DNA from: an uncultured Candidatus Saccharibacteria bacterium
GTDB lineage: Bacteria > Patescibacteriota > Minisyncoccia > Phycocordibacterales > UBA9973
Direction: 5' to 3'
Assembly: GCA_964361705.1 (NCBI GenBank)
Contig: CAYIBP010000003.1
Coordinates: forward strand, 5,606-69,605
DNA length: 64,000 nucleotides
The notes below the pieces were generated by a model. The model did no database searches. It was given only the letters and a program-made list of their open reading frames with translations, and was not told the DNA's origin. Position 1 is the stretch's first letter; each line of letters starts with the position of its first letter. A program made the position numbers and the translations under genes. Positions 10,667-48,805 of this stretch are shown here, one piece after another.

Positions 10667-10697
10667 AGGAACAGTCTAACATAATTTATTAAAAAAG

Positions 10698-10732
10698 CAA
10701 TAAAATAAAAAGACGCGGAATGCGTCTTTTTA
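10698..10732. terminator. Bidirectional intrinsic terminator between the 118-aa gene and rpsP
   Basis: AAAGACGC-ggaat-GCGTCTTT hairpin flanked by A-run and T-run (ttattttatttatt). Confidence 0.5.
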
Positions 10733-10760
10733 TTTTATTTATTCTCTAGCTATTACAGAA

Positions 10761-11117
10761 CTAGATATTGTCTATAAACTCGTTTGCTAGACTTAGCACA
10801 AGAGCAGCTTGCGCGTCAGTTAGATACTTGTAGCCTTTCTTTTTTCCTAATTTCTTCTCCATATCATTAGCTACTCTTTCCATCTTCCTTTCTGCTTTAT
10901 CTAGTTTATTTTTCTTTCCTGCTAAAGCAATCATATTGTCTATTCTGTTTAAGAGCTTCTTCTCATCAGGGGTACTGCCTGGAAATGCTTCAACGGTTGC
11001 TCTCATAGAAAGCAAATGCGCCATAGGATCAAATGGACCACCATAGGCTGCAGCAGAACCAAAACCCAAAACCATCATCATCGTAACCAATAAACTCGCA
11101 CCTAAGAACTTTTTCAT
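10761..11117 (-). CDS. Small secreted hypothetical protein
   Basis: 118 aa; signal peptide MKKFLGASLLVTMMMVLGFGSAAAYG; Lys-rich; no recognisable domain. Confidence 0.5.
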   Translation of the reverse strand: MKKFLGASLLVTMMMVLGFGSAAAYGGPFDPMAHLLSMRATVEAFPGSTPDEKKLLNRIDNMIALAGKKNKLDKAERKMERVANDMEKKLGKKKGYKYLTDAQAALVLSLANEFIDNI

Positions 11118-11262
11118 AAAATATAATTAGTTAAATTAATAATAAAAACATTTCGGAATATTATTTATATAGCCGATAGCATCATTATACACAATCATAT
11201 ATAATATGAAAACAACTTTAGATGTGGATAACCCACAACAGAGCTACTTATGGAATTAATAT

Positions 11263-12784
11263 GGATTTAAAACAGCAAATAAAGCCTAAATATATATTTT
11301 TAATATTAGTATCCTTGCTTGTTTTAGGTGGATTTTTTAGATTTTACCAACTAGAAAAAGCCCCATACTGGATGGATGAAGGATACACCATCAATGCCGT
11401 ACTTTCTGTCGAAGAAAAAGGCTCAACAATACTGGATTCCGGAGAAAAATATCGTTGCCCTACATACTGCCATATCACAGCTTATATAGCTGAACGCTTC
11501 GGTAACAATGCTTTTTCTTTTAGGTTTCTTTCTGTAATTGCAGGGATACTTTCTATAGCGCTGATTTTCTACACCACCAAGAGATTTTTTGGGAATATTG
11601 TTGCTATCACCTCGACCTTTTTTATAACCTTTTCATATTGGCAAATAGCCTGGTCTAGACAAGCCAGATGGTACACGCTTTTTGCTTTATTTTTTTGGCT
11701 AGCTATTTTGTTCTTTGATAAGTTTTTGAAAAGCGACAAAAGCAACTTGGAGAAATATTTATTTTTGACAAGCTCGCTGGTATTTTCTTTTCTTGCGTCT
11801 ATAACCCACGGACTTGGATACTTGATGCCTTTTATTTTTATGATTTGGTATTTTGTTGAAAAAGTCATTATAGAAAAGAAGGCGTCTTGGAAAAGATATG
11901 TCCTTGGATTCATATTAATTACAGGGACAATCCTTATTCTTGATTCCCTGCTAGGAACACGGTTTTACAAAGGTCTGCTACGAGGAATTAATCTTGATTT
12001 CAATCCGCATTATTATATTTACTTTTTGATTAAGAACTATTGGCTGTTTATTCTGCCTATGATATATACTTTATATACATCAATCAGAAAAAAGAAATTC
12101 ATCGTGGGAATTTTATTTTTTATTTTTCTAGCCTATTTACTGCCACTTTCTTTTTTAACAAAACTTGTAAATTATAGATACATTTTTCATGTTACCCCTA
12201 TACTGATCATTTTAGGCTCTTTAGGAATATACGACATATACTTGTTGATAAACAAAAAATGGCAGAAAATAGCTTTTATTTTGTGCATCATAATATTGTT
12301 CTTTTCTTTTGGTAAAGGAGTACTTGCCCCTAAAAATTTTTATTTTTTGGAATCAGACACTCCAAAGACATGGGGCAAGGGGGCGCATTATTCATACACT
12401 CCGCAACCAGACTGGAACAAAGCCTATGACTTTATAAAAAGTAATATGGAAAACGAAGATCTGGTGATCAGCAGTTTGCCTCATTTTAATAAAATATTCC
12501 TCGGCATACCAGGGTATTGGATAAAATATAATTACTTGGGTATAACAGGCAAAGAATCTAAGACAAAAGACAACAAAGAATTCTATGTGGGAGCTGAAAC
12601 AATAAACAATTTATCTGAACTTAAAGAATTAGCTTCAAAGAATCATGGATACATCGTACTGGATTTTATGGCAATAGATGAAAAAATACAGCCCGATATA
12701 TTGGAATACATCACAAACAACTTTGCACAAGTGTTTTACGACAGGATAAACACATATTCGCGAGTTTGGATATATAGATTTTAA
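11263..12784 (+). CDS. GT39/GT-C family glycosyltransferase (ArnT/PMT-like), polytopic membrane protein
   Basis: About 506 aa from the ATG at 11263 (the ORF track starts at 11222). Multiple TM helices; the N-terminal loop YWMDEGYTINAV carries a DE-type motif typical of ArnT/PMT-family GT-C enzymes. Confidence 0.7.
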
Positions 12785-12821: not shown

Positions 12822-13910
12822 ATGCAAGAAAAGATAAAGAACTGGTTTAAATCTATAAATTTTAGAGAATTTGCAAAACAAGAAGCAAAAAATCCTATAT
12901 TTTGGGCACGATTTTTTGCTTATGCTATTCCCCTAACCTTTTTGCTCTATATACTTTATATAAATTTTCTGCCCTTTGGATATGATAAAACTTTCGTCAT
13001 AAATGCTGGTTCAAAAAACGATATTGTTGTCAGTGAATTTTACTTGGAACCATCGACAAATCTTTCAGAAGACAAAGTAGATGAAAATGGAAAAACATAT
13101 CGCGAATTAAATGGTAGCGCATATGCAATATTTAAACCCAAAGCGATACTAAAAAACGCGACAGTAGCCATCACGACGGAAGACGAAGGAATATTTATAA
13201 ACTCCTCTCTTTTAGATTTTGATAAAGATGAAATAGAATGGGAAAATTCTTTTGATTTCAATGAAGGAATACCAAAAGGATGGGGTGGAAACGCGTTGAT
13301 GGTTGATGATGAACTCACCTTCAATGGAGAAAATTCGCGCATTTATCTGCCCTACTCCAGAGATAGATTTGAGGACGGGCCTTTTAGTTTATATATGGAG
13401 TGGTCTCCGACAGATGAAGACTCAAATTCCCAGCAGATAGTGGGACATTATAACTGGGAACTTTGGCAAAACAAAAACAATGTAGAATTCAGAGTGGGAA
13501 GAATGAATGACAATCAGGGACCCGCTTATTCTATTAAATACACTTTTGACCCTGATCTTTTTTTCTATGACACACATTCAGCTATCGCGATCTATAACCC
13601 AAGCGACAACGGCTACATAGAACTATACATAGATGATGAATATGCGGGTAGAACATACATAGGTAAAGATAAAATTTATAAATATTATGGTGATCAAAAT
13701 CTGACCATCGGATGGAGTCCTCACAACAATGGCAATAATTCATATTTTTCTGGCACTATATATGATCTGAGATTTGCACTTAAAAACATAATTACGCCAA
13801 ACAAAACTGTGACACTAGAAATGGAAGATAACGCTCCTCTAAAAATAGAACTTTTTTCAAACGGTACGGCAAAGTTGAGACAAATCAAGCTAAATGCAGT
13901 CAAACAATAA
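12822..13910 (+). CDS. Membrane-anchored concanavalin-A-like (LamG) domain protein
   Basis: 362 aa; N-terminal TM (IFWARFFAYAIPLTFLLYILYI); C-terminal FSGTIYDLRFALKN is a LamG hallmark. Confidence 0.6.
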   Translation: MQEKIKNWFKSINFREFAKQEAKNPIFWARFFAYAIPLTFLLYILYINFLPFGYDKTFVINAGSKNDIVVSEFYLEPSTNLSEDKVDENGKTYRELNGSAYAIFKPKAILKNATVAITTEDEGIFINSSLLDFDKDEIEWENSFDFNEGIPKGWGGNALMVDDELTFNGENSRIYLPYSRDRFEDGPFSLYMEWSPTDEDSNSQQIVGHYNWELWQNKNNVEFRVGRMNDNQGPAYSIKYTFDPDLFFYDTHSAIAIYNPSDNGYIELYIDDEYAGRTYIGKDKIYKYYGDQNLTIGWSPHNNGNNSYFSGTIYDLRFALKNIITPNKTVTLEMEDNAPLKIELFSNGTAKLRQIKLNAVKQ

Positions 13911-16071
13911 GTTACAAAATATTTGGATTCTATTGGATAGCTATTTCTTCATGCCATTCTTTAGCGCTCTAGCTCTAGTTTTTTTGTGTTTTTACATCGC
14001 TCCACTGGAGTTGTTTTATTTTAGTAAAGTATCATCCATCTACACAGCTATCATTTCCGCATTCATTGCTTTTTTTCTTTGGTTTAGAAGACTAGGAGAA
14101 GAAAGTAGAATAAAAAATCTTTTGACTGAATTAAATAAACATTTCTTTCTTTCAGGTTTAATAACCATAATTATCTTGAATCTCACGCCCTTTGGGAATC
14201 TCTCTTTTCCGACGTACATAAAATTAGTTTTAAACTTTGCGACATTTTTCAGCGGATTTATAACGATCTATGTCAATAAAAATTTATTAGTAAACATAGA
14301 ATCGGAAAGAAATGATGAAATACTTGTGGAGCAGGAGAAAATAAACGAATTCAGAAACAAATTTCCAAAAATAAATAAAATTCCATTATTTAGAAATGTT
14401 GCCAGATTTATTTACATAGAAAAATGGTGGTACTCTCTTTCTATAATCTTACTTTTGGTTATAGGTTTTGTGATAAGACTCTACAATCTTGGTGAACTGA
14501 GTCTATGGTGGGATGAACTCTTAACAGGAACTTACGTCACGAGAATTCTGGAAACAGGTTTACCAATATCACCGTCCGGTTTTGAATATTACTGGAGGGG
14601 AATATCATACCATTATCTTGTTTCTGGCTTTACATTTATTTTCGGAAACACTGAATTTTGGCTTAGATTCCCTAGTGTACTATTAGGAATTGGAACCATA
14701 ATACTATCTTTCTTGATAACGAAAAGAATAAACAAGATTCTAGCTCTTTTTATAGTAATTATTTTAACTTTTTCGATTTACAACGTAGAATATTCTCAAT
14801 TCGCTCGTTTCTATATAATGAACGCCTTTCTTTTTTTACTAAACATAGAATTCTTTTGGCGAGGATTCTTTGAGCAAAAAAAGTGGTTTAAGGTGCTCTC
14901 TATCATTACTTTCTTAATAATGATATTAACCGTACAGTTAGGATCAATATTTATTTCAGTAATATTTTATTACTTAATATATAAAATATCTTTAATAAAA
15001 ATTAAGAAATCAAGAATCAGAGACTTATTTAGTTTAAAATTATTTATACCTATAATGCTTTTTTTGAGTTTATATATAACTGGAAACCCTTTTGATTTGA
15101 TTGGTATCTATAAAGATCATCCTTATGAAGTGGATTTAATTAGTCAGGTAGATGGCAATGTAAGATACATTTTACCTAAAATACCCTACCCAGAATTTAA
15201 AAATATCGTATTACCATTTTTTAATGACTTTTACTGGCCAACTATTTTTTTCATCTTAGCATCAATTATTTCTTTATTTTTAATTTTTAACAAACTAAAA
15301 TTAAACAAAGAACTAGGTTACTCAGAATATATTCTGGGGATATCTTTTATATCACTAATACTCTTTGAGTTCGCTAATCCATTTTCAAAAGAACCTAGAC
15401 TATACCTAATGTTTGAACCTCTTTATATCATCCTATCAATGATGACTATTTTCATCATTGTAAAAGAAATCTTACAACTAAAGCATAAAAAAACATTGAT
15501 TATTCTGTCTTTCATTCTCCTTGCTTTATTTTTTAGTTCAAAACCATCCCTTTATGATGTGATGAATATTAGATACGGTGACAATGTGTCAAACGATCCA
15601 TTTAGAACTACTTGGGCTCAAGCGTATCGTTCCGATTCAAAAACCACGCTTGAATATTTAAAGAAAAATATAGAAGACGAAGACATTTGGATCAATACTC
15701 TTGAACCAGCATATTTTTATTTACAAAGAAATCCAGATTTTATTTTGAATCAAAATTACAAATGGAAAAACATGTGGCGAGAAGAAATTTTTACCGATAA
15801 AGATAAAAACTATATAGAAATAAGATATAACAGTATACTTATAAACACAATGGAAGACTTACAAAAAATCTTAAACAATAATACTAATAAAAATGTATGG
15901 CTCTTAGCAAACGGGCAAAACCTCGAAACATTATATACAAAACAATTAAATAAGGATTTTGTGGACTTTTTATCCGAAAATACAGAAAACGTTGTATATT
16001 CTTCTCCAGACGAAAGAAGCAAGCTTTTGCTTTTCCAAAAATTAAATCAATCCTTCTTGTTAAAGAAATAA
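13894..16071 (+). CDS. GT39/GT-C family glycosyltransferase (ArnT/PMT-like), second paralog
   Basis: 725 aa; at least 12 TM segments; LWWDELLTGTYVTRILETGLP loop motif; overlaps the upstream gene by 17 nt. Confidence 0.7.
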   Translation: MQSNNKLQNIWILLDSYFFMPFFSALALVFLCFYIAPLELFYFSKVSSIYTAIISAFIAFFLWFRRLGEESRIKNLLTELNKHFFLSGLITIIILNLTPFGNLSFPTYIKLVLNFATFFSGFITIYVNKNLLVNIESERNDEILVEQEKINEFRNKFPKINKIPLFRNVARFIYIEKWWYSLSIILLLVIGFVIRLYNLGELSLWWDELLTGTYVTRILETGLPISPSGFEYYWRGISYHYLVSGFTFIFGNTEFWLRFPSVLLGIGTIILSFLITKRINKILALFIVIILTFSIYNVEYSQFARFYIMNAFLFLLNIEFFWRGFFEQKKWFKVLSIITFLIMILTVQLGSIFISVIFYYLIYKISLIKIKKSRIRDLFSLKLFIPIMLFLSLYITGNPFDLIGIYKDHPYEVDLISQVDGNVRYILPKIPYPEFKNIVLPFFNDFYWPTIFFILASIISLFLIFNKLKLNKELGYSEYILGISFISLILFEFANPFSKEPRLYLMFEPLYIILSMMTIFIIVKEILQLKHKKTLIILSFILLALFFSSKPSLYDVMNIRYGDNVSNDPFRTTWAQAYRSDSKTTLEYLKKNIEDEDIWINTLEPAYFYLQRNPDFILNQNYKWKNMWREEIFTDKDKNYIEIRYNSILINTMEDLQKILNNNTNKNVWLLANGQNLETLYTKQLNKDFVDFLSENTENVVYSSPDERSKLLLFQKLNQSFLLKK

Positions 16072-16964
16072 AATATTCCTCCAATTGATGTCTGAATCAA
16101 CATTATAAAACGTGATAACAAAGAAATACTAAGAGATGCCTCTGCCGAAATACCAATGAAAGACAACAGAGATATCAAAGATAATTCATATACACCAATA
16201 GCATTCACAGAAATAGGTACGATACTTATTAATTGTATTACCAGATAAAAACCTGTAACTAACAAATAATCAGTGTTATATCCAAACATTAAGAGATAAA
16301 TCCATAGGCTTAGCGATCCAAGCAAGGGGTATATTATTGAAATTGACACAACTCTAAACCAATTTAAATTCATCTCTTTTATATGATTTTTAATTTTTAG
16401 AACAATTCCTTTCAATTTACTTGAAAAAAAGTAGATAATCAGAGCAAAAAGAAAAATAACAATAAATAAAAAGATAATTGAAATCTTTTTTACTTCTAAA
16501 TAAAAAAACGGCAAGATTTTATAAGACAGGAAAATTAAAAGAAGTAGTGTGCCAGCGATCCCCGACAATCTGTCTAATAAAACGGAGGTGAGGACCTTGG
16601 TCTTGCCCAATTCTGGTCCTAACTTTACAACCTTATAAGCATCACCTCCTATCGTGGAAGGTAAAAAATTACTGAAGAAATTACTCATCCAGTAGATTCT
16701 GAATAGTTTCCAAAACGGGTATTTTATCATCCCCTCCCATTTCAGAGTAGATAAAAATAATCCAGGTAAATATAAGAAAAAAGGAACAAGAATCAAATAA
16801 TTAACATTTGAAAACAATTTTATAGATTCTTCTAAGTCTATTTGACTTAAAACTAACCAAATAAACAGAAACATAAAACAAAGTTTTATAAAAAACCTGT
16901 GTTTAATTAGTAGTATTTTATATGGTTGTAAAAAATCAATTAATTTTTTCATATATTTTAGCAA
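16047..16964 (-). CDS. Flippase-like / lysylphosphatidylglycerol-synthase-TM-like (UPF0104) membrane protein
   Basis: 305 aa; polytopic; GGDAYKVVKLGPELGKTKVLTSVLLDRLSG resembles the UPF0104 domain. Confidence 0.55.
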   Translation of the reverse strand: MLKYMKKLIDFLQPYKILLIKHRFFIKLCFMFLFIWLVLSQIDLEESIKLFSNVNYLILVPFFLYLPGLFLSTLKWEGMIKYPFWKLFRIYWMSNFFSNFLPSTIGGDAYKVVKLGPELGKTKVLTSVLLDRLSGIAGTLLLLIFLSYKILPFFYLEVKKISIIFLFIVIFLFALIIYFFSSKLKGIVLKIKNHIKEMNLNWFRVVSISIIYPLLGSLSLWIYLLMFGYNTDYLLVTGFYLVIQLISIVPISVNAIGVYELSLISLLSFIGISAEASLSISLLSRFIMLIQTSIGGIFYFFNKKD

Positions 16965-17991
16965 GAGAAGTAATGTAATTATTTAAATCTTTACCTTTTA
17001 CATTATCCTTACCGTTGTGAATAAGTTTCAAATAAAGTTCTCCGTCAGATAGTAGGTATTTTATTTTGTTTGCTAAATCAGCAGAATTCTTAGATTGAAA
17101 GGTCAACACATTCCTTTTATCTTGTACCAAACTAGCCAAACTTTCAATATCAGAAACAATAACAGGCACACCAAACATCCAAGATTCATTTAGAACTATT
17201 GGATTTGCTTCACTTAGAGAAGAGATCACTAGCAAATCGATCTCGTTGTAAACATGCTCTACATCAGAAACGAAACCAAGAAATTTTATTCTGGAATCCA
17301 GATCCAGATCTCTTGATAAAGTTTTTAAGTTTAATAATTCTGGACCATCACCCGCAATAATCGCCTTATAATTAGTAGGTAAAAAAGACAAAGATTCTAT
17401 TAAGAATTTACATCCTTTTACTTCACTCAACCTACCGATAAAACCTATTGTATAATTGTCCTTTGGATAAAAATCAATATTAATAATATCAGAAGAGGCA
17501 GAGCACCTAACAAAATTATTCAACACATACAATTTATCTTTCTTGATTGATATATTTTTAAGTAAAAAATCTCTTATGTAGTCAGATACACAGATGACAC
17601 CGTTTATCCTTTTTTTACAGATTTTAAATAAGTTATTGTACAGACGATTGTTTATTAAAATATCTCCATGTTCATGGTGTATAAATTTTAAATCTCGAAA
17701 AATAAGAGATAAGATAATTCCAAAGTAAAACCCCTTACGATGATGAGTGTGTATAATATCTATCTTTTTGTTTTTAATTATAAAAAAAATATCTATGAGA
17801 GGAAAAAGATTAAATTTTGAATAGTTTTTCACTATTACATTATTCTTTTGTATTACTGGTTTATCAACAGGTTTGCGAATAAAATAATAAGTAAGTTGAA
17901 TATTGGGTATATTAAAATTCTTAATTAAAGAATCTACGATGGACTCTACGCCACCGAAACCATATTTATCAACTATATGTAAAACGTTCAT
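16936..17991 (-). CDS. GT4 (GT-B fold) glycosyltransferase
   Basis: 351 aa; C-terminal sugar-donor motif SLSEANPIVLNESWMFGVPVIVSD (E-X7-E type). Confidence 0.8.
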   Translation of the reverse strand: MNVLHIVDKYGFGGVESIVDSLIKNFNIPNIQLTYYFIRKPVDKPVIQKNNVIVKNYSKFNLFPLIDIFFIIKNKKIDIIHTHHRKGFYFGIILSLIFRDLKFIHHEHGDILINNRLYNNLFKICKKRINGVICVSDYIRDFLLKNISIKKDKLYVLNNFVRCSASSDIINIDFYPKDNYTIGFIGRLSEVKGCKFLIESLSFLPTNYKAIIAGDGPELLNLKTLSRDLDLDSRIKFLGFVSDVEHVYNEIDLLVISSLSEANPIVLNESWMFGVPVIVSDIESLASLVQDKRNVLTFQSKNSADLANKIKYLLSDGELYLKLIHNGKDNVKGKDLNNYITSLAKIYEKIN

Positions 17992-17994
17992 AAT

Positions 17995-19095
17995 TTATAG
18001 ATTTGAATATGCCACTAATAAATCATTATTTTCATAATTACTAATTATATTATTCCTCGTACTGATCACACCATCTAATAAAGCATTATTATCTCGTTCA
18101 AGTCTAGAAAGGATATTTTGTAAATCACCTTTGTTTTTATAAAACAAACCATTAAAATTGTCACGTAGCAACTCATGGTTACATTCAATATCATTAGCTA
18201 TCGTGATTTTATCCATAAGCAGATAGTGTATCATTTTCATACTAGGTTGTCTGCCATATATTCTAGGTAAAACGCCCGCTATAGATTTTTTGATCAAAAA
18301 ATTAACATGGGGTACTGATAATTTACCAGGCAAGAAAACTTTTGCATTTAATTCGAGTGTATTTATCAAATCATTGATATTTTCTGAAATCTTCCCAACA
18401 ATGACTAATTTAAACTCGCTTTTAACTTGTGAAAAAAGATTTAAGAAGTTTTCAATACCTTGGTATGATTCAGAATTTCCAACATAAATAAGATATTTTT
18501 CATTTTTTTTATTATCAATAATATAATCTTCAATCTTCAAATCTAATTTATCATAAAAAAGTACAGTTTTTTTATCTTTAAAAACTGGATCCTTTGAATA
18601 AATCTGCCAATTCAAAATTATTAAATCGCAATTTTGGATAATCTTTCTTTCTAAAAAAAGAATAAAACTCCTAAAGGGAACTTCTTTTCTGGAAATTTCT
18701 AGATTATCTATAATGCGATTATGTAAGTCATAGATTAATTTAACTTTTTTTGATACAAAAAAAGAAAGGATATATCCAATAAAAGCAGCCTCAAAATCTT
18801 CACAGTGAACAAAACTATACTGTCTGGATAATATCAAATACAATCCTTTACAAAAAATCAAAAAATCTAGAATTATTCGAGATAAATTTATTTTTCCAAC
18901 ACCTATCGTGGGTTTAAAAAAACTAATAGTCCTGTATAATCTTGTATTTTTTAGCTCAATATCTTTCCCAAGATTATAAGTAAGTAAATCAATTTCATAT
19001 TTTTCACTTAATTTGCTAACCATCGAATACACACGAAGAGAAGAACCTTTTTCTTCGTAAAATGGTGTTGTGGCAATTACCAATACCCTCTTCAT
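17995..19095 (-). CDS. GT4-like glycosyltransferase
   Basis: 366 aa with GT-B architecture; adjacent to the GT4 gene and 4 nt-coupled to galE. Confidence 0.6.
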   Translation of the reverse strand: MKRVLVIATTPFYEEKGSSLRVYSMVSKLSEKYEIDLLTYNLGKDIELKNTRLYRTISFFKPTIGVGKINLSRIILDFLIFCKGLYLILSRQYSFVHCEDFEAAFIGYILSFFVSKKVKLIYDLHNRIIDNLEISRKEVPFRSFILFLERKIIQNCDLIILNWQIYSKDPVFKDKKTVLFYDKLDLKIEDYIIDNKKNEKYLIYVGNSESYQGIENFLNLFSQVKSEFKLVIVGKISENINDLINTLELNAKVFLPGKLSVPHVNFLIKKSIAGVLPRIYGRQPSMKMIHYLLMDKITIANDIECNHELLRDNFNGLFYKNKGDLQNILSRLERDNNALLDGVISTRNNIISNYENNDLLVAYSNL

Positions 19096-29964: not shown

Positions 29965-30007
29965 CTAGCATATAAAAGATAAAAAGCAAAATTTTAACTC
30001 TGCCTTG

Positions 30008-30035
30008 TTGACAATAAATATATCCGCGCTATCAT
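30008..30035 (+). promoter_or_regulatory. Sigma-70-type promoter of the thrS leader (TTGACA-16-TATCAT)
   Basis: TTGACA at 30008-30013, a 16-nt spacer, TATCAT at 30030-30035. Confidence 0.5.
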
Positions 30036-30041
30036 ACTCTT

Positions 30042-30224
30042 ATATAGAGATTGTCACGGCTACCAACCGTAATCCGATTAAAACGGACTCTTAAGAGAGC
30101 TAATCTATGAAAGAGCGCTCGGGAAAATTCTCGAGAAACTAGGTGGAACCACGAGGACTTTAACTTCCCCGCCCTAGTAAGGATGTAGAACTTTTGCATC
30201 TTTACTAGGGCGGGGATTTTTTGT
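30042..30224 (+). ncRNA. T-box riboswitch leader (Thr-specific candidate) ending in an intrinsic terminator
   Basis: The T-box-like sequence AACTAGGTGGAACCACGAG (30137-30156) matches AGGGUGGNACCGCG at 11 of 13 positions. The UGGA bulge could pair with the tRNA NCCA end. ACC Thr codons followed by a purine lie in the upstream stem region (GGCTACCAACCG). A 14-bp GC-rich terminator CCCCGCCCTAGTAA...TTACTAGGGCGGGG plus a T-run sits at 30167-30224. About 230 nt separate the promoter from the thrS ATG. Confidence 0.55.
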
Positions 30225-30270: not shown

Positions 30271-32019
30271 ATGGAAAAAGAAAATTTAGAACACAAAAGA
30301 CATTCGTTAGCGCATTTGTTATCAGCAGCAGTTTTGGAACTTTACCCCGATACAAAAAACACTATCGGTCCTGCTATTGATGATGGTTTCTATTATGATT
30401 TTGAATTCTCTGAACCTATATCAGACAAAGATCTGCCAAATATAGAGAAAAAAATGCGCGCGCTTTTGAAATCTTGGAAAGAATTTAAAAGTGAAGAAAA
30501 AACAAAAGAAGAAGCGCAAGAATATTTCAAAAATAATCCATACAAACTAGAACTAATAAACGAGATAAAAGATAAGAGTGAAAAAATTACTTTTTATACT
30601 TGTGGCAATTTTACTGATTTATGCCGAGGTGGACACAGTGAAAACCCTAGCAGAGATATCGCCCCAGACTCTTTCAAACTTGATCGCGTAGCAGGCGCAT
30701 ACTGGCGTGGAGATGAAAAAAACAAAATGCTCACTCGCATATATGGATTAGCTTTTGAAACGAAAGACGAGCTTGAAAAATATATTTATCAAAGAGAAGA
30801 AGCAAAGAAAAGAGACCATAGAAAGCTCGGCAAAGAACTTGAACTCTTTACAAACATAGAAGAAATCGGCCCTGGGCTTCCCCTCTTTTATCCAAATGGC
30901 ACAATATTGCGTAGAACGATTGAGAACTTTATACAAGAAACTCAGGAAGCGCTGGGCTACGTTCCTATCTGGATACCTCATATAACAAAAGAAAATTTGT
31001 ATAAAATCTCTGGGCACTTGGATAAATATGATGCCATGTATTCACCTATGAAAATAGATGATGATAATTATTATCTAAAACCCATGAATTGTCCGCATTT
31101 CATGATGCTATACAAGACAAAACCACATTCATACAAAGAAATGCCTGTGCGATACACTTGCACGACGACAAATTACCGTTACGAAAAATCAGGTGAACTA
31201 TCTGGTCTCACTCGAGTGCGCGCGCTGACTCAGGACGACTGTCATGTATTTTGCGAACCAGAAAAAATAAAAGAGGAAATAAATTTAATTCTAAAAATGA
31301 TAGAAAAAGTTTATTCTGCATTTGGACTCAAAGATTTCTATGTACGCATATCGCTCCGTGATTCAAAAGACAAAAGCAAATATTTGGGTTCCGATAAAGT
31401 ATGGGAAACGGCAGAAAACGCTCTCCGTGAGATAGTGAAAGCTACAGGTTGGAAATACGAAGAAGCCGAAAATGAGGCCGCTTTCTACGGACCAAAATTA
31501 GACTTTATGTTCAAGGACGCCATAGGTCGTGAGTGGCAACTCTCCACCGTACAACTAGACTTTAATCTGCCAGAAAGATTTGAATTGGAGTATACAAACA
31601 ACAACGGAGAAAAGGTTCGTCCTGTAGTGATACATCGTGCAATTCTCGGATCCACAGAAAGATTTATGGGTATAATGATCGAACATTTTGCTGGTAATTT
31701 CCCTCTTTGGCTTTCGCCTACCCAAGTCGCCATAGTACCTGTACGCGAAAACCACGACGAAGAAGCACTCAAACTTGCAGACAGCTTGAAAGCAGAAAAT
31801 TTGCGCGTAGAAATATATCAATCCGCATCAGATAGTCTTGGCAAGCGCATCCATAAAGCAAAAGATATGTTGATACCTTATGTCATAGTCCTTGGTGACA
31901 AAGAAGTCTCCTCCCAAAAACTCACAATAGAAAAGAGAGATGGCACAAAGATAGAAAATATTTCTGCTTTAGAATTTATAGAGAGTTTAAAGAGGGGAAC
32001 AGAAAAAAAAGACCTTTGA
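30271..32019 (+). CDS. thrS: Threonyl-tRNA synthetase (lacks the N-terminal TGS/N1 region)
   Basis: 582 aa. It begins in the second additional domain (HxxxH ... CxxxxxxCRGGH zinc motif), followed by the class II catalytic core and the anticodon-binding domain. Confidence 0.9.
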   Translation: MEKENLEHKRHSLAHLLSAAVLELYPDTKNTIGPAIDDGFYYDFEFSEPISDKDLPNIEKKMRALLKSWKEFKSEEKTKEEAQEYFKNNPYKLELINEIKDKSEKITFYTCGNFTDLCRGGHSENPSRDIAPDSFKLDRVAGAYWRGDEKNKMLTRIYGLAFETKDELEKYIYQREEAKKRDHRKLGKELELFTNIEEIGPGLPLFYPNGTILRRTIENFIQETQEALGYVPIWIPHITKENLYKISGHLDKYDAMYSPMKIDDDNYYLKPMNCPHFMMLYKTKPHSYKEMPVRYTCTTTNYRYEKSGELSGLTRVRALTQDDCHVFCEPEKIKEEINLILKMIEKVYSAFGLKDFYVRISLRDSKDKSKYLGSDKVWETAENALREIVKATGWKYEEAENEAAFYGPKLDFMFKDAIGREWQLSTVQLDFNLPERFELEYTNNNGEKVRPVVIHRAILGSTERFMGIMIEHFAGNFPLWLSPTQVAIVPVRENHDEEALKLADSLKAENLRVEIYQSASDSLGKRIHKAKDMLIPYVIVLGDKEVSSQKLTIEKRDGTKIENISALEFIESLKRGTEKKDL

Positions 32020-34272: not shown

Positions 34273-34279
34273 ACAGGGT

Positions 34280-34288
34280 ATTATAGCA
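34280..34288 (-). promoter_or_regulatory. Extended -10 (TGCTATAAT) 7 nt upstream of the gyrB ATG: leaderless-type promoter
   Basis: Minus strand reads TGCTATAAT-ACCCTGT-ATG. Confidence 0.5.
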
Positions 34289-34337
34289 GAAAAATAAACC
34301 GTTTGCTAGTGAAAAAATTTTGAAATATGAGATATAA

Positions 34338-34372
34338 TAAAAAAAATAGTCTGCGAATGAAAATTCGCAGAC
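34338..34372 (-). terminator. Intrinsic terminator downstream of the tRNA
   Basis: Minus strand reads GTCTGCGAAT-TTTC-ATTCGCAGAC followed by a T8 run. Confidence 0.7.
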
Positions 34373-34377
34373 TTTCG

Positions 34378-34453
34378 TGACGGTGACGGGATTCGAACCC
34401 GTGGACACTGCTTCTCAGGCAGTTGGCGATCCTATCGCCTCGTCTCCACCGTC
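34378..34453 (-). tRNA. tRNA with an atypical cloverleaf and an apparent GAG anticodon
   Basis: On the minus strand there is a perfect 7-bp acceptor (GACGGTG/CACCGTC), a T-arm ACGGG-TTCGAAT-CCCGT, an anticodon arm ACTGC-CTGAGAA-GCAGT and a D-arm GGCG-ATAGGAT-CGCC. Seven nt, not two, separate the acceptor from the D-stem, and the variable loop is 4 nt. A GAG (Leu) anticodon should come with a long variable arm, which is absent, so the identity is uncertain. Confidence 0.55.
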
Positions 34454-35014
34454 ATGAACATCGCATTTGATACGACAAAGTCATATGAAATGCGATATCC
34501 ACGATAGATAAAGACAAAAAAATTGGGGGTGGATTGAAAAAATTTTCGCGCCAACCCCCTCATTTTCTCTATCCTTATTTGCCTTTTCGTTTAACCAACT
34601 CCCTTCTAAAGAGGAATTGGGGGGAAGGCATTCAGATAGAGAGCAGAAAACACAAAACCTTTTATTTATGTCAATTGCTCTCTATCCGAAAATCTTTGCC
34701 AAAGAACAAAATCTAGTAAAAACTAAACTAGCCCTATCCTTGCGGAGAGGGCTAGTGTTTGAGTTGTATATTTTCCCTTATTTCCTTCTTAGTTATACAG
34801 CGCAAGCATCAGACCTCTCCTTCCCGTGTTGGGTGAGGATAGTAATAAAGAGGACGACGTATTTGCTTGCAAACTGTAAAGTTTTCACAGCTACAAATAT
34901 ACCAAAATCGAAAAAAACCTGCAAGCGCAAGTGTGGATAACTCCCAAATTTTAAGGAGCAAAGCGACTATAAAACTTGAGGATCCCGCCAAAGGCGGGAT
35001 AAAAATAGAGATTT

Positions 35015-35054
35015 GGGCAAAATTTGGCCCTCAGCATGAAGCTTGCTGAGGGCC
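35015..35054 (-). terminator. Candidate pheT terminator: 11-bp GC-rich hairpin
   Basis: GGCCCTCAGCA-tgaagct-TGCTGAGGGCC, followed on the minus strand by CAAATTTTG, about 95 nt after the pheT stop. Confidence 0.45.
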
Positions 35055-35146
35055 ACGATAACTCCGGCTAGGCTATCCCACATAGGGACCTCCGAGATTA
35101 AGTTATTTTCATCTTCCAAGATTATAACATTTACAGACAAATTAGT

Positions 35147-42445: not shown

Positions 42446-42532
42446 GGAGGCGTCGCATAGTGGTCTAGTGCACCACCTTGGAAAGGTGGCAGGCTCGAAA
42501 GGGTCTCGTGAGTTCAAATCTCACCGCCTCCG
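42446..42532 (+). tRNA. tRNA-Ser (anticodon GGA)
   Basis: Acceptor GGAGGCG/CGCCTCC; 3-bp D-stem; anticodon arm CCACC-TTGGAAA-GGTGG; long variable arm; T-arm GTGAG-TTCAAAT-CTCAC; discriminator G. Confidence 0.85.
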
Positions 42533-42551
42533 CACGAATTTGAAAGAATTT

Positions 42552-43712
42552 ATGTCCCATAATAATTTAAACTCAAAAAACAAATTGATAAGCGAAAGTC
42601 TAACGGTCCGACTAAACACGCTGGCAAATCAACTCAAATCTGAAGGCAAGAAGATAATAAACCTCACTGCAGGAGAACTCGATTTCCCTACTCCGTCTTA
42701 TATACAACAAGAAGTAAAGAACAAACTGTCTCTGAACAAATACACTCCCACCACAGGGTTTCTGGATTTGCGTCAAGCTTTGGCAAGACAGGTATTCAAA
42801 GAATATAAATGGCAAGTCACACATCAAAATGTGGCAGTAACATCAGGATGCAAACAAGCGCTCTTTGAGAGTTTGTTCGCAATACTCAAAAAGGACGATG
42901 AAGTCATAGTCCCATCACCTGATTGGGTGACATACAGATACCAGATCATTTTAAATGATGCTGTGCCTGTGATCGTGCCACTCGATAAAGATTTCGATCT
43001 GGATGTGGAAAAAATAAAAAAAGCGATCACTAAAAAAACAAAAGCAATAATACTAAATAGTCCCAATAACCCCACCGGCTCTATATATAGTACAAAAAAA
43101 CTTCTGGAATTAAAGAAAATTTTAAAAGAAAAAGATATATATGTAATAGTAGATGACACTTACAGCAAAATCGTGTATGACGCGTCTTATAAATCTCCGG
43201 CGCTTTTTATGCCAGATGAAAGATATCTGATCTTGGTAAACAGTTTTTCTAAAAGCCAAGCACTGACTGGCTGGAGGATAGGATATGTAATAGCCGACAA
43301 AGAAATCATAAATGCAATATCTTCTTATCAGAGCCACACCACAGGCAATGCTCCAATACTGTCGCAGATCGCTGCGCAAAAAATATTGGAAAAAGGAGAC
43401 AAGACTGAAAGATTTGTAAAAGTACTAAAGAAACAAAGAGACCTAGCTGATAAAATATTAAAAAATATATCTGGGATTTCCTACACAGTTCCAAAAGGCG
43501 CTTTTTATTATTTCATAGATGTGTCTAAGATCGAAAAAAACACAGAAAAGTTTTGCGAAGAACTTCTGAAATCGGGATTGGCGTTGGTTCCCGGTGAAGC
43601 TTTTGGTTATCCCGGATTTGTGAGATTGTCATTTTCAACTTCGACAAAAAATCTGATCGAGGGTATTAAAATATTTAAAAAGTTCTGCGAAAACTATAAA
43701 AACCATGATTAA
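42552..43712 (+). CDS. Class I/II PLP-dependent aminotransferase (aspartate aminotransferase-like)
   Basis: PLP-lysine motif SFSKSQALTGWRIGY. The start is moved to the ATG at 42552 because the ORF-track start at 42468 overlaps tRNA-Ser. The stop overlaps the ppcA ATG. Confidence 0.85.
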   Translation: MSHNNLNSKNKLISESLTVRLNTLANQLKSEGKKIINLTAGELDFPTPSYIQQEVKNKLSLNKYTPTTGFLDLRQALARQVFKEYKWQVTHQNVAVTSGCKQALFESLFAILKKDDEVIVPSPDWVTYRYQIILNDAVPVIVPLDKDFDLDVEKIKKAITKKTKAIILNSPNNPTGSIYSTKKLLELKKILKEKDIYVIVDDTYSKIVYDASYKSPALFMPDERYLILVNSFSKSQALTGWRIGYVIADKEIINAISSYQSHTTGNAPILSQIAAQKILEKGDKTERFVKVLKKQRDLADKILKNISGISYTVPKGAFYYFIDVSKIEKNTEKFCEELLKSGLALVPGEAFGYPGFVRLSFSTSTKNLIEGIKIFKKFCENYKNHD

Positions 43713-45207
43713 AATTCCAAGAACAATGGCAACACAGCATCCTGATAATGCCAAAGCTCCGTATTGGGAACAAGATGGCGACACTTTTGTGAGCGCAAAA
43801 GAAGAACCAGCAGAATGCGTAGATGCATTTCAAAATCTAAATGTAGAAGAATTTATGTGGGACTGGGAAGGCAAATTTGCAGAAGAAGCGGTGATAGACA
43901 GGTTGTTTCATAAATATTTTGATTACTTCAAAGAAAACCAGCTTGGACTAAAGAAAAGACTCACTTTTCGCATACCAAACATTTGGCAGGAAAAAGGCTA
44001 CAGTCTGATCCGCGCATTGATGGTAATATTGACCAGTGAAGATTTTGCGCGAGATTTGAAATTTCATTCACCTCCCTTGTTTGAAGTCATTTTGCCGATG
44101 ACAGAGAATGCAAAACAACTTATCTTTATTCAGAAATCATTCCAAGAATTGGCAAAGATAAAATCAAAGATATTCAACCAGTCTGAAAAAAATGCTCAAT
44201 ATATAAATATAATTCCCCTTTTTGAAGATGTACACACGCAAATAAATGCAAAGAGAATTCTGATAGAGTACATAAAACTCCATAAAAGAACTTTTGGCTT
44301 CAAGCCAAAATATTTGCGCGTATTTATAGCTCGCAGTGACCCAGCCATGTCTTCAGGCATGGTATCCACAGTGCTTGCCAACAAGATAATCCTCTCTGAT
44401 CTTTGCGAATTAGAAAAAGAATCCGGCATACCCATATACCCTATCTTGGGCGCAGGCTCTCTGCCTTTTCGCGGAGGACTTTCACCTTTGACCATGAAAG
44501 AATTTGATGAAGAGTACAGAGGAATACATACCATAACAATCCAATCAGCTTTCAGATACGACTACAAACTCTCTTCAGTCAAAAAAGCCATAAAATATTA
44601 CAATCAGCAAACTATCCGCAAGCCAGAAATCATTTCTAGCGAAGAGCGAAGCAAGTTACTGAGAATAATAAACTTGTTTGAAAAAGAATATAAGGCGAAT
44701 CTAAAAAAGATCTTGCCTGATGTTTCTTTTGTATTCAATTCTTTCCCAAGAAGAAGGGAGAGGCACCTGCATATAGGGCTCCTCTCTTATGGTAGGAAAA
44801 TACATGGTGTAAATATGCCACGCGCTATCACATTTACCGGATCTTTTTATTCATTGGGTATTCCGCCAGAGTTTTTAGACGTAGGAGCTATTTTATCACT
44901 CACAGACAAGGAAGTAGCCTTGGTAAATAAATTTTATAAAAATACCAAAGGTGCCCTTTCGCATGCTGGACGATTTTTAAATCGAAACAATCTGCGCAAA
45001 CTAGGTAAAAAATCAAAAAGTTGGGCAAAAATTGAAAAAGATATAGAACAAACCGAGAATTTTCTAAAGATTAAATTCAAAACTCAAAGTAAAGACGACA
45101 TAGCTCACCTTAAACTCACAGGCATGCTTCTGAAATCAAAGAAAAATCCGAAAAAGATAAAGCAAATCATAAATAAAACCGGAATCCTGAGAAAAAGTCT
45201 AGGATAA
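43705..45207 (+). CDS. ppcA: Archaeal-type phosphoenolpyruvate carboxylase
   Basis: N-terminus MIKIPRTMATQHPDN is the hallmark start of atPEPC; about 500 aa is typical for the archaeal-type enzyme. Confidence 0.8.
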   Translation: MIKIPRTMATQHPDNAKAPYWEQDGDTFVSAKEEPAECVDAFQNLNVEEFMWDWEGKFAEEAVIDRLFHKYFDYFKENQLGLKKRLTFRIPNIWQEKGYSLIRALMVILTSEDFARDLKFHSPPLFEVILPMTENAKQLIFIQKSFQELAKIKSKIFNQSEKNAQYINIIPLFEDVHTQINAKRILIEYIKLHKRTFGFKPKYLRVFIARSDPAMSSGMVSTVLANKIILSDLCELEKESGIPIYPILGAGSLPFRGGLSPLTMKEFDEEYRGIHTITIQSAFRYDYKLSSVKKAIKYYNQQTIRKPEIISSEERSKLLRIINLFEKEYKANLKKILPDVSFVFNSFPRRRERHLHIGLLSYGRKIHGVNMPRAITFTGSFYSLGIPPEFLDVGAILSLTDKEVALVNKFYKNTKGALSHAGRFLNRNNLRKLGKKSKSWAKIEKDIEQTENFLKIKFKTQSKDDIAHLKLTGMLLKSKKNPKKIKQIINKTGILRKSLG

Positions 45208-45231
45208 AATAGATATTTCCCATCCAAAAAT

Positions 45232-45272
45232 ACAAAAGCCCCATATAGATACAATATCTATACAGGGGAGAT
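45232..45272. terminator. Bidirectional intrinsic terminator between convergent ppcA and the GC-rich gene
   Basis: CCCC-a-TATAGATA-caa-TATCTATA-ca-GGGG followed by ATTTTTA on the plus strand and by a T-rich run on the minus strand. Confidence 0.55.
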
Positions 45273-45310
45273 TTTTACGATAATCTCAAAAACGTAAAAT
45301 GAAAACTTGC

Positions 45311-46060
45311 TCAGCTTGCGACGGGCTCTGCAGCAATCTCTTCGGGCCTGCAAGCAACAATTGCCACGAATAACTTCTTCGTTGGCGAAGAAAGTGGTAA
45401 AATTTCGCTTGTGATTTTGCCCAAATGAGAGCGTAGCAATGTAAAATTGCTAGCTCCAGTATCTGTCCCAAAAAATGCCAGAGGAGACCCATTCAGAGCC
45501 TCCTTAAAATCATTGACATCAAAAGACGCGATATTTCGAGCCGTAGTTGCTCCAGCAAGGCAAAATCCTAAACCGCGCCTGCGAAAAGATTTGGCAATTT
45601 CACCTGCCGTTCTCCCTTCGCCACTGACAGCCACAACCGCAAGTTTTTCGTCGTCCAGAAGAAAAGCCGGATTTTCCCTGAAGAGCTTCAGGGCATTGAG
45701 AGCTTGCGCGTAATCGTCTTTGATTTCGGCCTCAGCCAAAATCGACGCGGCCTGCGTCCCCGTGACGGCTTGAAGGTTGAGAGGTTGCCTAGCGCGCGGA
45801 TCAAAAGCGGTCCTAGTGCCAATAGGAACCGGCGAAAGTTCTTCGTCCGGCAACTTTGTTGACGAAAATTCTTCTTGTTCTTGAGATAACAATCCGTGGA
45901 TAAAAGCCTCGAACTTTGCCTTGAACGCATAAGGACTGCTGATAATCCAATCGTTCAGGGTTTCGAATTCTTCCTCCGAGAGTTCCATCATCTTAAGCCT
46001 CTCAGCGAAGCTTCTAATAATATCTCTTCTGAGATCCCAAATGATCAGTTTTTTTAGCAT
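45311..46060 (-). CDS. Hypothetical protein encoded in a compositionally foreign GC-rich segment
   Basis: 249 aa from the ATG at 46060, which sits 11 nt after a perfect AAGGAG Shine-Dalgarno. The GTG start at 46099 in the ORF track is less likely. Local GC is about 55-60% against about 30% around it. No confident domain assignment. A possible Rossmann-like segment (LAVVAVSGEGRTAGEIAKSF...GFCLAGATTARNIA) is a weak call. Confidence 0.6.
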   Translation of the reverse strand: MLKKLIIWDLRRDIIRSFAERLKMMELSEEEFETLNDWIISSPYAFKAKFEAFIHGLLSQEQEEFSSTKLPDEELSPVPIGTRTAFDPRARQPLNLQAVTGTQAASILAEAEIKDDYAQALNALKLFRENPAFLLDDEKLAVVAVSGEGRTAGEIAKSFRRRGLGFCLAGATTARNIASFDVNDFKEALNGSPLAFFGTDTGASNFTLLRSHLGKITSEILPLSSPTKKLFVAIVACRPEEIAAEPVAS

Positions 46061-46116
46061 GGCTCTTTTCTCCTTAGAGTTTAGCCATTTTACTAACACT
46101 ACGCGGGATTGGGTGC

Positions 46117-46170
46117 GTAGTCATAGCTCCAAAAACCCAATATTTATTGGGTACTTAAAGCTATGACTAC
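46117..46170. repeat. Nested inverted repeat upstream of the GC-rich gene
   Basis: A 12-bp perfect IR GTAGTCATAGCT / AGCTATGACTAC flanks a 30-nt spacer that contains the palindrome CCCAATAttTATTGGG. Confidence 0.6.
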
Positions 46171-46248
46171 TTGAGCAAGTAATTTTTAAAGAGCTTTATA
46201 CTTTTATATTATAGCATACTGGACACCTATGTGTCAAACAGACCTGAC

Positions 46249-46273
46249 ATGATGTCAAAGAGACTCTTTGACA
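46249..46273. repeat. Perfect 25-nt palindrome at the 3' end of ligA
   Basis: GATGTCAAAGAG-a-CTCTTTGACATC, followed on the plus strand by TAGAGCATTTTTAAAAATT. Confidence 0.55.
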
Positions 46274-46274
46274 T

Positions 46275-48805
<2,531 letters not shown>

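Follow-up and report, generated by a model that had tools for sequence, protein, structure and literature searches.

The GC-rich gene between ppcA and ligA in a 64-kb stretch of Patescibacteria DNA (hereafter the window) stands out from its surroundings in composition and in translation signals, and raises the question of what kind of gene it is and how it came to occupy this position. The host is a Nomurabacteria-like Patescibacteria (Paceibacteria) population in Hainich groundwater, and the gene, here called ORFX, is lineage-restricted. The genes concerned are:

43705..45207, plus strand: ppcA, archaeal-type PEP carboxylase (PF14010), flanking gene, convergent with ORFX
45311..46060, minus strand: ORFX, orphan protein-coding gene of 249 aa, with an ORF length beyond all 2000 shuffles and present in public gene calls
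46275..48290, minus strand: ligA, NAD-dependent DNA ligase LigA, flanking gene, upstream of ORFX on the same strand

ORFX is a genuine protein gene and no assembly artefact. The minus-strand ORF of about 249 aa between ppcA and ligA that was reported in a preliminary description of this locus is present, with 249 codons and both flanks identified. Its frame contains 269 stop-free codons, whereas 2000 dinucleotide shuffles averaged 95 and never exceeded 235 (p < 1/2000), and gene callers predict the identical 249-aa product in public assemblies. The GC content at the three codon positions (GC1 > GC2 ~ GC3) matches that of the native genes. In AT-rich genomes, GC-rich islands often turn out to be structured RNAs, and the ORFX leader is strongly structured while its protein lacks any homologue, which would suit an island that is non-coding, either a structured RNA or foreign DNA in decay, with an incidental ORF. 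This is nevertheless highly improbable, given the ORF length, the codon-position pattern typical of coding sequence, and a canonical Shine-Dalgarno (SD) motif at the correct spacing from the start. In addition, folding of the CDS body is unremarkable (z mostly +0.9 to -2, minimum -3.6), and Rfam, searched at gathering and permissive thresholds, returned no family for either the leader or the GC-rich body, the best matches being miRNA models that scored ~23 bits where gathering requires 79-100.

The preliminary description had also allowed for an assembly chimera, in which DNA of a higher-GC organism was joined into the contig. The local GC jump at ORFX would fit such an error, as would the behaviour of three low-coverage contigs (3-4x), which break or diverge at 45836-45850, in the GC-richest stretch; these breaks, however, fall within ORFX and away from its borders. 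They may stem from a GC-related dip in coverage or from a structural variant, and the first 106 nt of contig L007 fall under the same two alternatives. Both ligA-ORFX-ppcA junctions are present in seven fetched contigs (11 on record) with at least 99.95% identity; six fetched contigs span the two junctions with 0-1 mismatches, and three of these, L001-L003 (11-88 kb), showed 0 mismatches over the compared region. The junction-bearing contigs derive from several samples of Hainich groundwater, covering different wells, filter fractions and replicates, and from two Logan runs. No polymorphism was found inside ORFX except for three mismatches at the end of a single contig of 3x coverage. Furthermore, the SD motif and the terminator that flank ORFX are collinear with those of a related genome (described below). 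The chance of a chimera is negligible.

The GC content of ORFX is 47.6%, compared to 36.9% for the window. It is the GC-richest of the 49 ORFs, and also the GC-richest 750-nt stretch of the window, although the contrast is smaller than the 55-60% against ~30% first proposed: a value of 59% is confined to the central part of the gene, at about 45700-45850 (codons 67-105). With native codon usage, the expected GC content of ORFX is 42.9%, against 47.7% observed, and amino-acid composition accounts for about half of the excess (the Ala content is 12.4%, against 5.6%). The synonymous codon usage is the most atypical among the 49 ORFs, with the lowest score (z = -3.7). The over-used codons are CTG, CGC, AGG, TCG and ACG; CTG and CGC had been singled out earlier, together with GCC, but the commonest Ala codon is in fact GCT.

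A second peculiarity of ORFX is its ribosome-binding site:

46070..46075, minus strand: Shine-Dalgarno motif AAGGAG, separated by 9 nt from the ATG at 46060

The motif had been described with a spacing of 11 nt, which is to be corrected to 9 nt. Within the window, ORFX alone has an SD motif at its gene start (0/48 for the other ORFs, taking the first start). A TATAAT-like box lies 3-14 nt upstream of the start in 13/49 ORFs, and its closeness to the start suggests leaderless mRNAs. These sequence features suggest that the genome is SD-less and partly leaderless, in agreement with the earlier impression of leaderless native genes, and with its top GC content, most atypical synonymous codons and sole SD motif in the window, ORFX does look foreign in composition, as initially characterized, and in translation. 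A literature search on SD usage in Patescibacteria returned nothing directly usable. Bacteroidia otherwise avoid SD motifs, and rpsU is a rare SD-led gene there. ORFX resembles such genes in that a strong SD motif is carried by one or very few genes, and differs from rpsU in that it encodes no ribosomal protein and shows no sign of autoregulation.

Upstream of the SD motif, the following elements were recognized:

46251..46275: perfect palindrome (12+1+12), GATGTCAAAGAG-A-CTCTTTGACATC, overlapping the ligA stop codon
46231..46243, minus strand: third copy of the half-site (GTCTGTTTGACAC), overlapping the -35 box
46208..46237, minus strand: predicted sigma-70 promoter, with TTGACA at 46237-46232, an 18-nt spacer and TGc-TATAAT at 46216-46208
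46117..46170, minus strand: leader hairpin with 26-nt arms, 85% complementary
46061..46201, minus strand: predicted 5' leader of about 140 nt, strongly structured

The predicted promoter has 12/12 consensus matches plus the TG of an extended -10 element, and an exact TTGACA-N16-18-TATAAT occurs once in the window, at ORFX, with a chance expectation of 0.02. We infer that RNA polymerase would start at this full-consensus promoter (46237-46208), with a predicted transcription start near 46201, and that the resulting leader of about 140 nt would fold to form the long hairpin. The predicted fold of the leader has an energy of -53.2 kcal/mol (z = -6.6), and z-scores of -5 to -6 are found over the leader only. 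The inner stem of the hairpin, ACCCAAU/AUUGGGU, is followed by U5, and the 3' arm has an alternative pairing with 46093-46104. A regulatory role of the leader, for example as a riboswitch or attenuator, may be envisaged. An upstream ORF of 16 codons (46124-46074, minus strand) ends on the SD motif of ORFX. AAGGAG-N9-AUG would then recruit ribosomes to ORFX, a mode of initiation predicted for no other gene of the window.

The nested inverted repeat noted earlier at 46117-46170 is thus present, with 26-nt arms, and the perfect 25-nt palindrome exists too, at 46251-46275 instead of 46249-46273. The palindrome immediately precedes the -35 box, and the third half-site is 21 nt from its proximal arm. 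The palindrome is a candidate operator or else a hairpin, without a U-tract, at the end of ligA; most likely, the palindrome and the third half-site over the -35 box would bind a dimeric regulator that gates a very strong promoter.

Downstream of ORFX, the intergenic region with ppcA is occupied by:

45222..45293, minus strand: two-hairpin terminator block, consisting of hairpins A (45287-45268) and B (45267-45239) and then CUUUUGUAUUUUU

The block has the sequence of an intrinsic terminator, with a 13-pair stem followed by CUUUUGUAUU downstream of the ORFX stop. The earlier proposal of a bidirectional terminator agrees with the location of the hairpin at 45239-45267 between ORFX and ppcA, and on the plus strand the block could terminate ppcA also. 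Transcription of ORFX and of the convergent ppcA would accordingly end at a common two-hairpin element.

The block is conserved in a related genome, L052 (P0004), where a 79% identical copy (L052:10559-10631, E = 1e-12) keeps both hairpins with one compensatory pair change and sits behind a gene unrelated to ORFX. L052 is the one syntenic relative on which the comparison of the ligA-ppcA slot rests, and 13 genes around the slot are conserved there at 51-80% amino-acid identity. Searching for relatives via ppcA gave 44 genome loci, none with ligA adjacent and none with an ORFX match, and searching via ligA gave L052 as the only syntenic locus; in P0005 and P0006, ligA is followed by a gene for an ECF transporter. 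A third candidate relative, L056, was rejected as a chimeric contig, its GC content changing from 0.36 to 0.50 inside ppcA.

ORFX is missing from the syntenic position in L052. The slot there holds an unrelated 132-aa orphan ORF and a gene for a 35-aa hydrophobic peptide, with GC contents of 46.1% and 44.4%, compared to 36.2%, and these two are the only SD-led genes in L052. It is the 132-aa ORF behind which the homologous terminator lies. The slot coding regions of the two genomes exhibit no DNA similarity (z = 0.05, shuffled local alignment), and tblastx between ORFX and the L052 slot ORFs detected nothing at the translated level, whichever frame was considered. Weak similarity (z = 2.9) is seen over the 25 nt next to the SD motif, and the long leader hairpin was not found in the shorter, unrelated leader of L052. 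The content of the slot is therefore variable between relatives, while its flanks are syntenic.

The ORFX product has 249 aa, a mass of 27.4 kDa, a pI of 5.2 and no transmembrane segment. It is predicted to be a soluble, acidic protein consisting of a helical N-terminal part (residues 1-66, three-helix, 40% GC), a disordered linker (residues 67-105, rich in Pro, Ala, Arg and Thr, 59% GC) and an alternating alpha/beta C-terminal part (residues 106-249, 48% GC) that contains the motif GEGRTA. The two terminal parts were delineated in low-confidence models: AlphaFold2 run without an alignment gave a pLDDT of 41 for the full protein and 42 for the C-terminal 146 aa, both unreliable.

No homologue was recovered for this protein. 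An exhaustive phmmer search of 1.84 billion cluster representatives (~15 billion proteins) returned ORFX self-matches only, and a homologous-protein search of 5.8 billion clusters gave nothing beyond self-matches. One candidate, P0002, was rejected as an artefact, being a four-fold tandem repeat that has the word 'DWVISSP' in common with ORFX. Pfam, NCBIfam, PADLOC and PHROGs contained nothing significant for the whole protein or per domain, consistent with the first impression that no domain can be named. A plasmid search and a viral-contig scan gave zero matches, tblastn against phages gave only a chance-level endolysin match (E = 0.03), and phmmer against the PDB gave only matches with E > 0.3.

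The central segment had been tentatively described as Rossmann-like. A predicted strand-GxGxxA-helix-strand (LAVVAVSGEGRTAGEIAKSF) in the C-terminal part does resemble the Rossmann domain of a D-2-hydroxyacid dehydrogenase (PDB 3gvx), and its GEGRTA motif aligns with the GxGxxG loop of that protein, but only at E = 0.3-0.4; this is the best PDB match, and Pfam gave none. Unlike a full six-stranded Rossmann fold, the ORFX domain is too short, and unlike Rossmann NAD(P)-binding domains, it lacks the acidic residue ending strand 2. The same C-terminal residues have a weak alternative match to the helix-turn-helix-like EutK_C (E = 0.005-0.013).

Taken together, we consider ORFX to be an orphan of the accessory gene pool, predicted to be transcribed separately, which occupies a replaceable ligA-ppcA slot and was probably obtained by horizontal transfer, and assign this reading a probability of roughly 0.6. 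The coding segment would have entered the slot, as a gain or a replacement, after divergence from L052, while the terminator, and perhaps also the ribosome-binding site, stayed in place, and the source would most probably be an unsampled phage, mobile element or higher-GC partner. With no donor or homologue at hand, the case for horizontal transfer consists of composition and absence from L052. The earlier suggestion of a recent transfer from a higher-GC host thus retains the foreign appearance of the gene and its absence from the relative, but no donor was found among the representatives of ~15 billion proteins.

The kept terminator, and perhaps the SD motif, could just as well derive from an ancestral gene, since overwritten or diverged in place. 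A vertical origin, in which an ancestral slot gene passed on its SD motif and terminator while the CDS either diverged until no longer recognizable or arose de novo in each lineage from GC-rich spacer DNA at this position, would explain why the terminator block of L052 retains its structure and 79% identity, why the SD-proximal region retains weak similarity, and why orientation, SD use and raised GC are common to the slots of both genomes. It also suits the failure to find a donor homologue anywhere, and long ORFs arise more easily in GC-rich DNA. We nonetheless regard it as rather unlikely: the CDS bodies have no residual similarity at the DNA or translated level, although even the least conserved neighbour is still at 51%; the slot ORFs are of unequal length (249 and 132 aa); the codon usage of ORFX (z = -3.7) is unexpected in an old resident gene; and the ORF is longer than shuffles of equal composition give.

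If acquired horizontally, ORFX might have arrived as cargo of a small mobile element (a transposon, a MITE-like element or an integron-type cassette), with the inverted repeats serving as its ends or recombination sites, a role also raised in the preliminary description. Several palindromes flank the gene, the limits of the variable segment nearly coincide with those of the CDS, with a ribosome-binding site of weak conservation on one side and the conserved hairpin block on the other, and this hairpin-bounded segment is loosely reminiscent of an ORF-plus-hairpin cassette. The repeats themselves argue otherwise. The palindromes on the two sides bear no relation to one another, each is single-copy, and neither terminal inverted repeats nor direct duplications bracketing ORFX were found. 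The flanks contain no integrase or transposase, att site, target-site duplication or tRNA target, the nearest tRNA (42446-42533) being 2.7 kb off. No other copies of the hairpins were found in the window or in viral contigs, and a metagenome scan for the terminator motif gave 76 matches, all by chance except the L052 contig already known. Such an origin is thus very unlikely. The repeats are best read as a terminator on the left, which L052 keeps behind a different gene, and on the right as a leader hairpin and a promoter-proximal palindrome acting as operator or terminator, and not as transposon ends.

A further possibility, which we consider quite unlikely, is that the ligA-ppcA slot is a conserved 'expression dock', in which a native promoter and a kept ribosome-binding site and terminator serve unrelated foreign ORFs that are swapped almost exactly CDS-for-CDS, SD-led genes forming a special translational class in organisms whose other genes are normally SD-less or leaderless. 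An example would be genes that were taken from an SD-using host or phage, or that are aimed at one, and whose translation is restricted to certain ribosome states.

As a slot between two conserved housekeeping genes, with content that differs between relatives and flanks that are syntenic, the ORFX locus resembles the replacement-type flexible genomic islets that carry ORFan genes, and ORFX itself resembles ORFan accessory genes in its atypical composition and codon usage and its lack of homologues. It differs from multi-gene islands in that the slot holds one gene, and from flexible islets in that the exchanged stretch matches the CDS almost precisely, the downstream terminator being kept, and in that the slot genes alone are SD-led in SD-less genomes. 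Foreign DNA is more often AT-richer than its host, whereas the slot genes are GC-richer. An ORF-sized variable unit followed by a conserved block of imperfect hairpins also recalls integron gene cassettes (ORF plus attC hairpin), and different ORFs precede homologous hairpins in the ORFX locus and L052, but this is a resemblance only and not membership: the ORFX locus lacks an integrase, attI, an array and R/L core sites, and, unlike attC, its hairpin block carries a U-tract, reads as an ordinary intrinsic terminator and was found at one locus only.

The genomes of Patescibacteria are small and rich in unknown genes, and which of these genes are recent, exchangeable accessories is mostly unclear. 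At present, ORFX is one more orphan gene, and the main value of the analysis lies in correcting the first reading with regard to a chimera, a transposon and the size of the GC contrast. It does tie one orphan to a defined replaceable slot and to unusually explicit expression signals, and a sister genome shows a corresponding pattern. If SD-led GC-rich orphans recur in SD-less Paceibacteria, they would provide a simple marker of recently acquired or specially translated genes, and would be candidates for host-interaction or phage-interaction functions.

ORFX, the 249-codon open reading frame between ppcA and ligA, is arranged with its flanks as follows:

43705–45207, plus strand: archaeal-type PEP carboxylase gene (ppcA; PF14010), convergent with ORFX
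45287–45268 and 45267–45239, minus strand: ORFX terminator, two hairpins 3' of the stop, then a U-rich tract
45311–46060, minus strand: ORFX, 249 codons, ATG start, TGA stop
46117–46170, minus strand: core hairpin of the ORFX leader, first described as a nested inverted repeat
46251–46275: perfect palindrome overlapping the ligA stop codon and abutting the ORFX -35 box
46275–48290, minus strand: NAD-dependent ligA, in the same orientation as ORFX

The stop-free run in this 1067-nt interval spans 269 codons, longer than in any of 2000 dinucleotide-preserving shuffles of the interval (mean 95, maximum 235), and the GC content of ORFX by codon position (0.53/0.44/0.46) follows the native-type pattern GC1 > GC2 ~ GC3. 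For these two reasons ORFX was treated as protein-coding. Starting from an in-frame GTG (46099) would lengthen ORFX by 13 codons, but this GTG has no ribosome-binding site. The predicted product is a 27-kDa, acidic (pI 5.2), soluble protein without a transmembrane segment. That the region is instead a non-coding RNA is very improbable, since a sliding-window fold scan found strong structure limited to the leader and an unremarkable coding body.

The GC content of ORFX is 47.6%, compared to a window average of 36.9%, making it the GC-richest 750-nt stretch in the window and the highest of the 49 ORFs compared (about 2.9 standard deviations over the mean); no other window gene showed such a shift. 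The GC-rich anomaly of the preliminary description is thus upheld, while its 55–60% is true only of codons 67–105 (59%), the N-terminal 66 codons being at 40% and the C-terminal 144 at 48%. Amino acid composition accounts for roughly half of the excess (Ala 12.4% versus 5.6%; Arg and Pro up; Lys, Asn, Ile and Tyr down); native synonymous usage would give 42.9%, compared to the observed 47.7%, and synonymous usage in ORFX is the least native-like of the 49 ORFs (z = -3.7). A KhpA-type KH-domain gene ranks next in GC3. A second compositionally deviant region departs in the opposite direction: an AT-rich island at 13894–19095 (27–29% GC versus 37%) codes for two GT1/GT4 glycosyltransferases, an LPG-synthase-TM-like protein and a 725-aa protein without a Pfam match, with a PMT_2-like glycosyltransferase gene (11222–12784) just upstream. 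Codon usage is second most atypical in a 107-aa ORF without a Pfam match (34617–34940), the single long ORF of a gene-poor 870-nt spacer (34273–35146). This spacer also contains a tRNA-like element (34378–34444, minus strand; Rfam 34 bits, not called by ARAGORN), and may hold an unrecognised RNA gene.

The feature of ORFX that we consider most distinctive is its Shine-Dalgarno (SD) motif, AAGGAG 9 nt 5' of the ATG. None of the 48 other window ORFs carries an SD core, even of 4 nt, at its first start, and about a quarter of all ORFs (13/49) have a TATAAT-like box ending 3–14 nt upstream of the start codon, suggesting leaderless mRNAs. The earlier observation that native genes appear leaderless and ORFX SD-led is borne out by these counts. 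Related Paceibacteria loci (the syntenic relative L052, and L008–L015) present the same SD-poor picture, which suggests that leaderless or SD-independent initiation is widespread in this clade. A 68-codon ORF in another frame (45286–45492, minus strand), whose product begins with a hydrophobic stretch, overlaps the ORFX 3' end and is preceded by a perfect AAGGAGG-N6-ATG. It may be due to chance, because the motif comes from the Phe-Lys-Glu-Ala codons of ORFX, but is notable because the L052 slot likewise encodes an SD-led 35-aa hydrophobic peptide.

The only exact TTGACA-N16–18-TATAAT in the 64 kb lies at 46237–46208 (chance expectation 0.02); this predicted promoter has an extended -10 (TGc) and a predicted start near 46201. 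The resulting leader of about 140 nt has a folding energy of -53 kcal/mol (z = -6.6). Its core hairpin has U5 after the inner stem and a 3' arm able to pair with 46093–46104 instead; no Rfam family matched the leader, and no homologous leaders were found. Within it, a 16-codon upstream ORF (46074–46124, minus strand; MTTHPIPRSVSKMAKL), whose TAA stop overlaps the first AAGGAG bases, could be a translational coupling or attenuation device, or a coincidence. A third copy of the palindrome half-site lies 21 nt off, over the -35 box, and together they suggest an operator; alternatively, the palindrome is a U-tract-less hairpin ending ligA. Our working guess, at low confidence, is that the promoter is strong and probably repressible. 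Elsewhere, a T-box leader match at 29970–30179 (plus strand) scores below threshold (35 bits versus a gathering score of 93; E = 4e-6, applying to a 721-nt search). It lies directly 5' of a threonyl-tRNA synthetase-like gene (30271–32019; tRNA-synt_2b, HGTP_anticodon, tRNA_SAD); a plausible reading is that this Patescibacteria genome has a divergent T-box riboswitch here.

The organism is Nomurabacteria-like, with ppcA relatives 66–73% identical and ligA relatives at most 76%. The sole syntenic relative was L052 (JGI Ga0247727_10005239), in which synteny runs through pilins, ligA, the slot between ligA and ppcA, ppcA, an aminotransferase gene, truB and uvrD. All 13 neighbouring genes compared, including function-unknown pilus-associated proteins, are 51–80% identical in protein sequence. 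The L052 slot is occupied by a 132-aa ORF unrelated to ORFX, followed farther along by the 35-aa peptide gene; ORFX showed no similarity to these ORFs in protein, any translated frame or DNA (z = 0.05). Directly behind the stop codons of ORFX and the 132-aa ORF, a 73-nt block shows 79% identity (E = 1e-12), with both terminator hairpins kept and one compensatory pair change; similarity in the 25 nt surrounding the SD is weak (z = 2.9). When metagenomes were scanned for the terminator motif, L052 was the only relative recovered. The L052 slot ORFs have GC contents of 46.1% and 44.4% (locus, 36.2%), and they are the only SD-led genes among 15 at that locus. About 450 extra bases between its terminator and ppcA (10640–11074) hold a long hairpin (GGTTTAGCAAAA...TTTTGCTAAACC) and the SD-led peptide gene (10882–10989, MEIILCFLGALVILGCTLFVLMGKIVRVHQQPSGD), whose product recalls type I toxin-like small membrane peptides.

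A word-indexed search (5.8 billion clusters) and an exhaustive phmmer scan (1.84 billion representatives, standing for about 15 billion proteins) recovered only the population carrying ORFX, apart from one match rejected as a spurious repeat protein. Nothing significant was found in Pfam, NCBIfam, PADLOC, PHROGs or PDB, in phages and plasmids (tblastn), or in a viral-contig scan. A GxGxxA-type loop (GEGRTA) aligns with the NAD loop of 3gvx (weak E = 0.3–0.4), and the same residues give a weak EutK_C-like match (E = 0.005–0.013). AlphaFold2 without an alignment gave a pLDDT of 41–42, and fold comparison was therefore not warranted. We tentatively regard the product, at low confidence, as a small cytoplasmic protein with a regulatory or nucleotide-binding role.

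The exact ORFX protein is recorded on 11 contigs. The seven that were fetched for comparison derive from a number of Hainich groundwater assemblies (wells H51 and H52; 0.1 and 0.2 µm fractions; replicates) and from two Logan runs; six of them span both junctions with 0–1 mismatches, so that the assembly chimera raised in the preliminary description can practically be dismissed. In the NCBI MAG GCA_038055755.1 ('Patescibacteria group bacterium'), ORFX is present as two partial pieces. Three contigs at 3–4x coverage (L007, 1–106; L057, end; L134, start) break or diverge at 45836–45850, within the GC-richest stretch of ORFX; L007 continues with 106 nt matching nothing else fetched. The simplest account is a coverage effect, in which a GC-related dip would be accompanied by a chimeric contig end; a minor structural variant at the N-terminal domain/linker boundary is the alternative. 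A public metagenome contig, L056 (JGI Ga0562387_15749), is itself chimeric, switching inside ppcA from a Paceibacteria aminotransferase–ppcA segment (31–36% GC) to roughly 47–54% GC DNA with aldolase-, methyltransferase- and UvrA-like genes.

Cassette-type mobility of ORFX is improbable: neither inverted nor direct terminal repeats flank it, and no integrase or transposase is nearby. Nor are the left and right palindromes borne out as the att or transposon ends once proposed, for they are unrelated to each other, single-copy in the window and were not found in viral contigs. What stands from the preliminary description is the anatomy (ORF, SD, palindromes, flanks) and a foreign-looking gene with no known function; magnitudes and some coordinates did not hold.

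The data are best fitted by an orphan accessory gene that stands alone in a slot open to replacement. After the window and L052 lineages separated, its coding segment would have been swapped or gained, with the terminator kept in place and perhaps the ribosome-binding site as well. The most economical origin is horizontal transfer from a source not yet sampled. Such a transfer would account for the foreign codon usage, the elevated GC and an SD in a genome otherwise without them; we infer it only, as donor and mobility signature are both absent. The main rival, in which the gene arose in place or an ancestral slot gene diverged to an extreme degree, is unlikely but deserves consideration. Orphan accessory genes in variable islets are common in Patescibacteria; less ordinary are two genomes with SD-led, GC-rich, mutually unrelated ORFs in one slot, with a homologous terminator behind.
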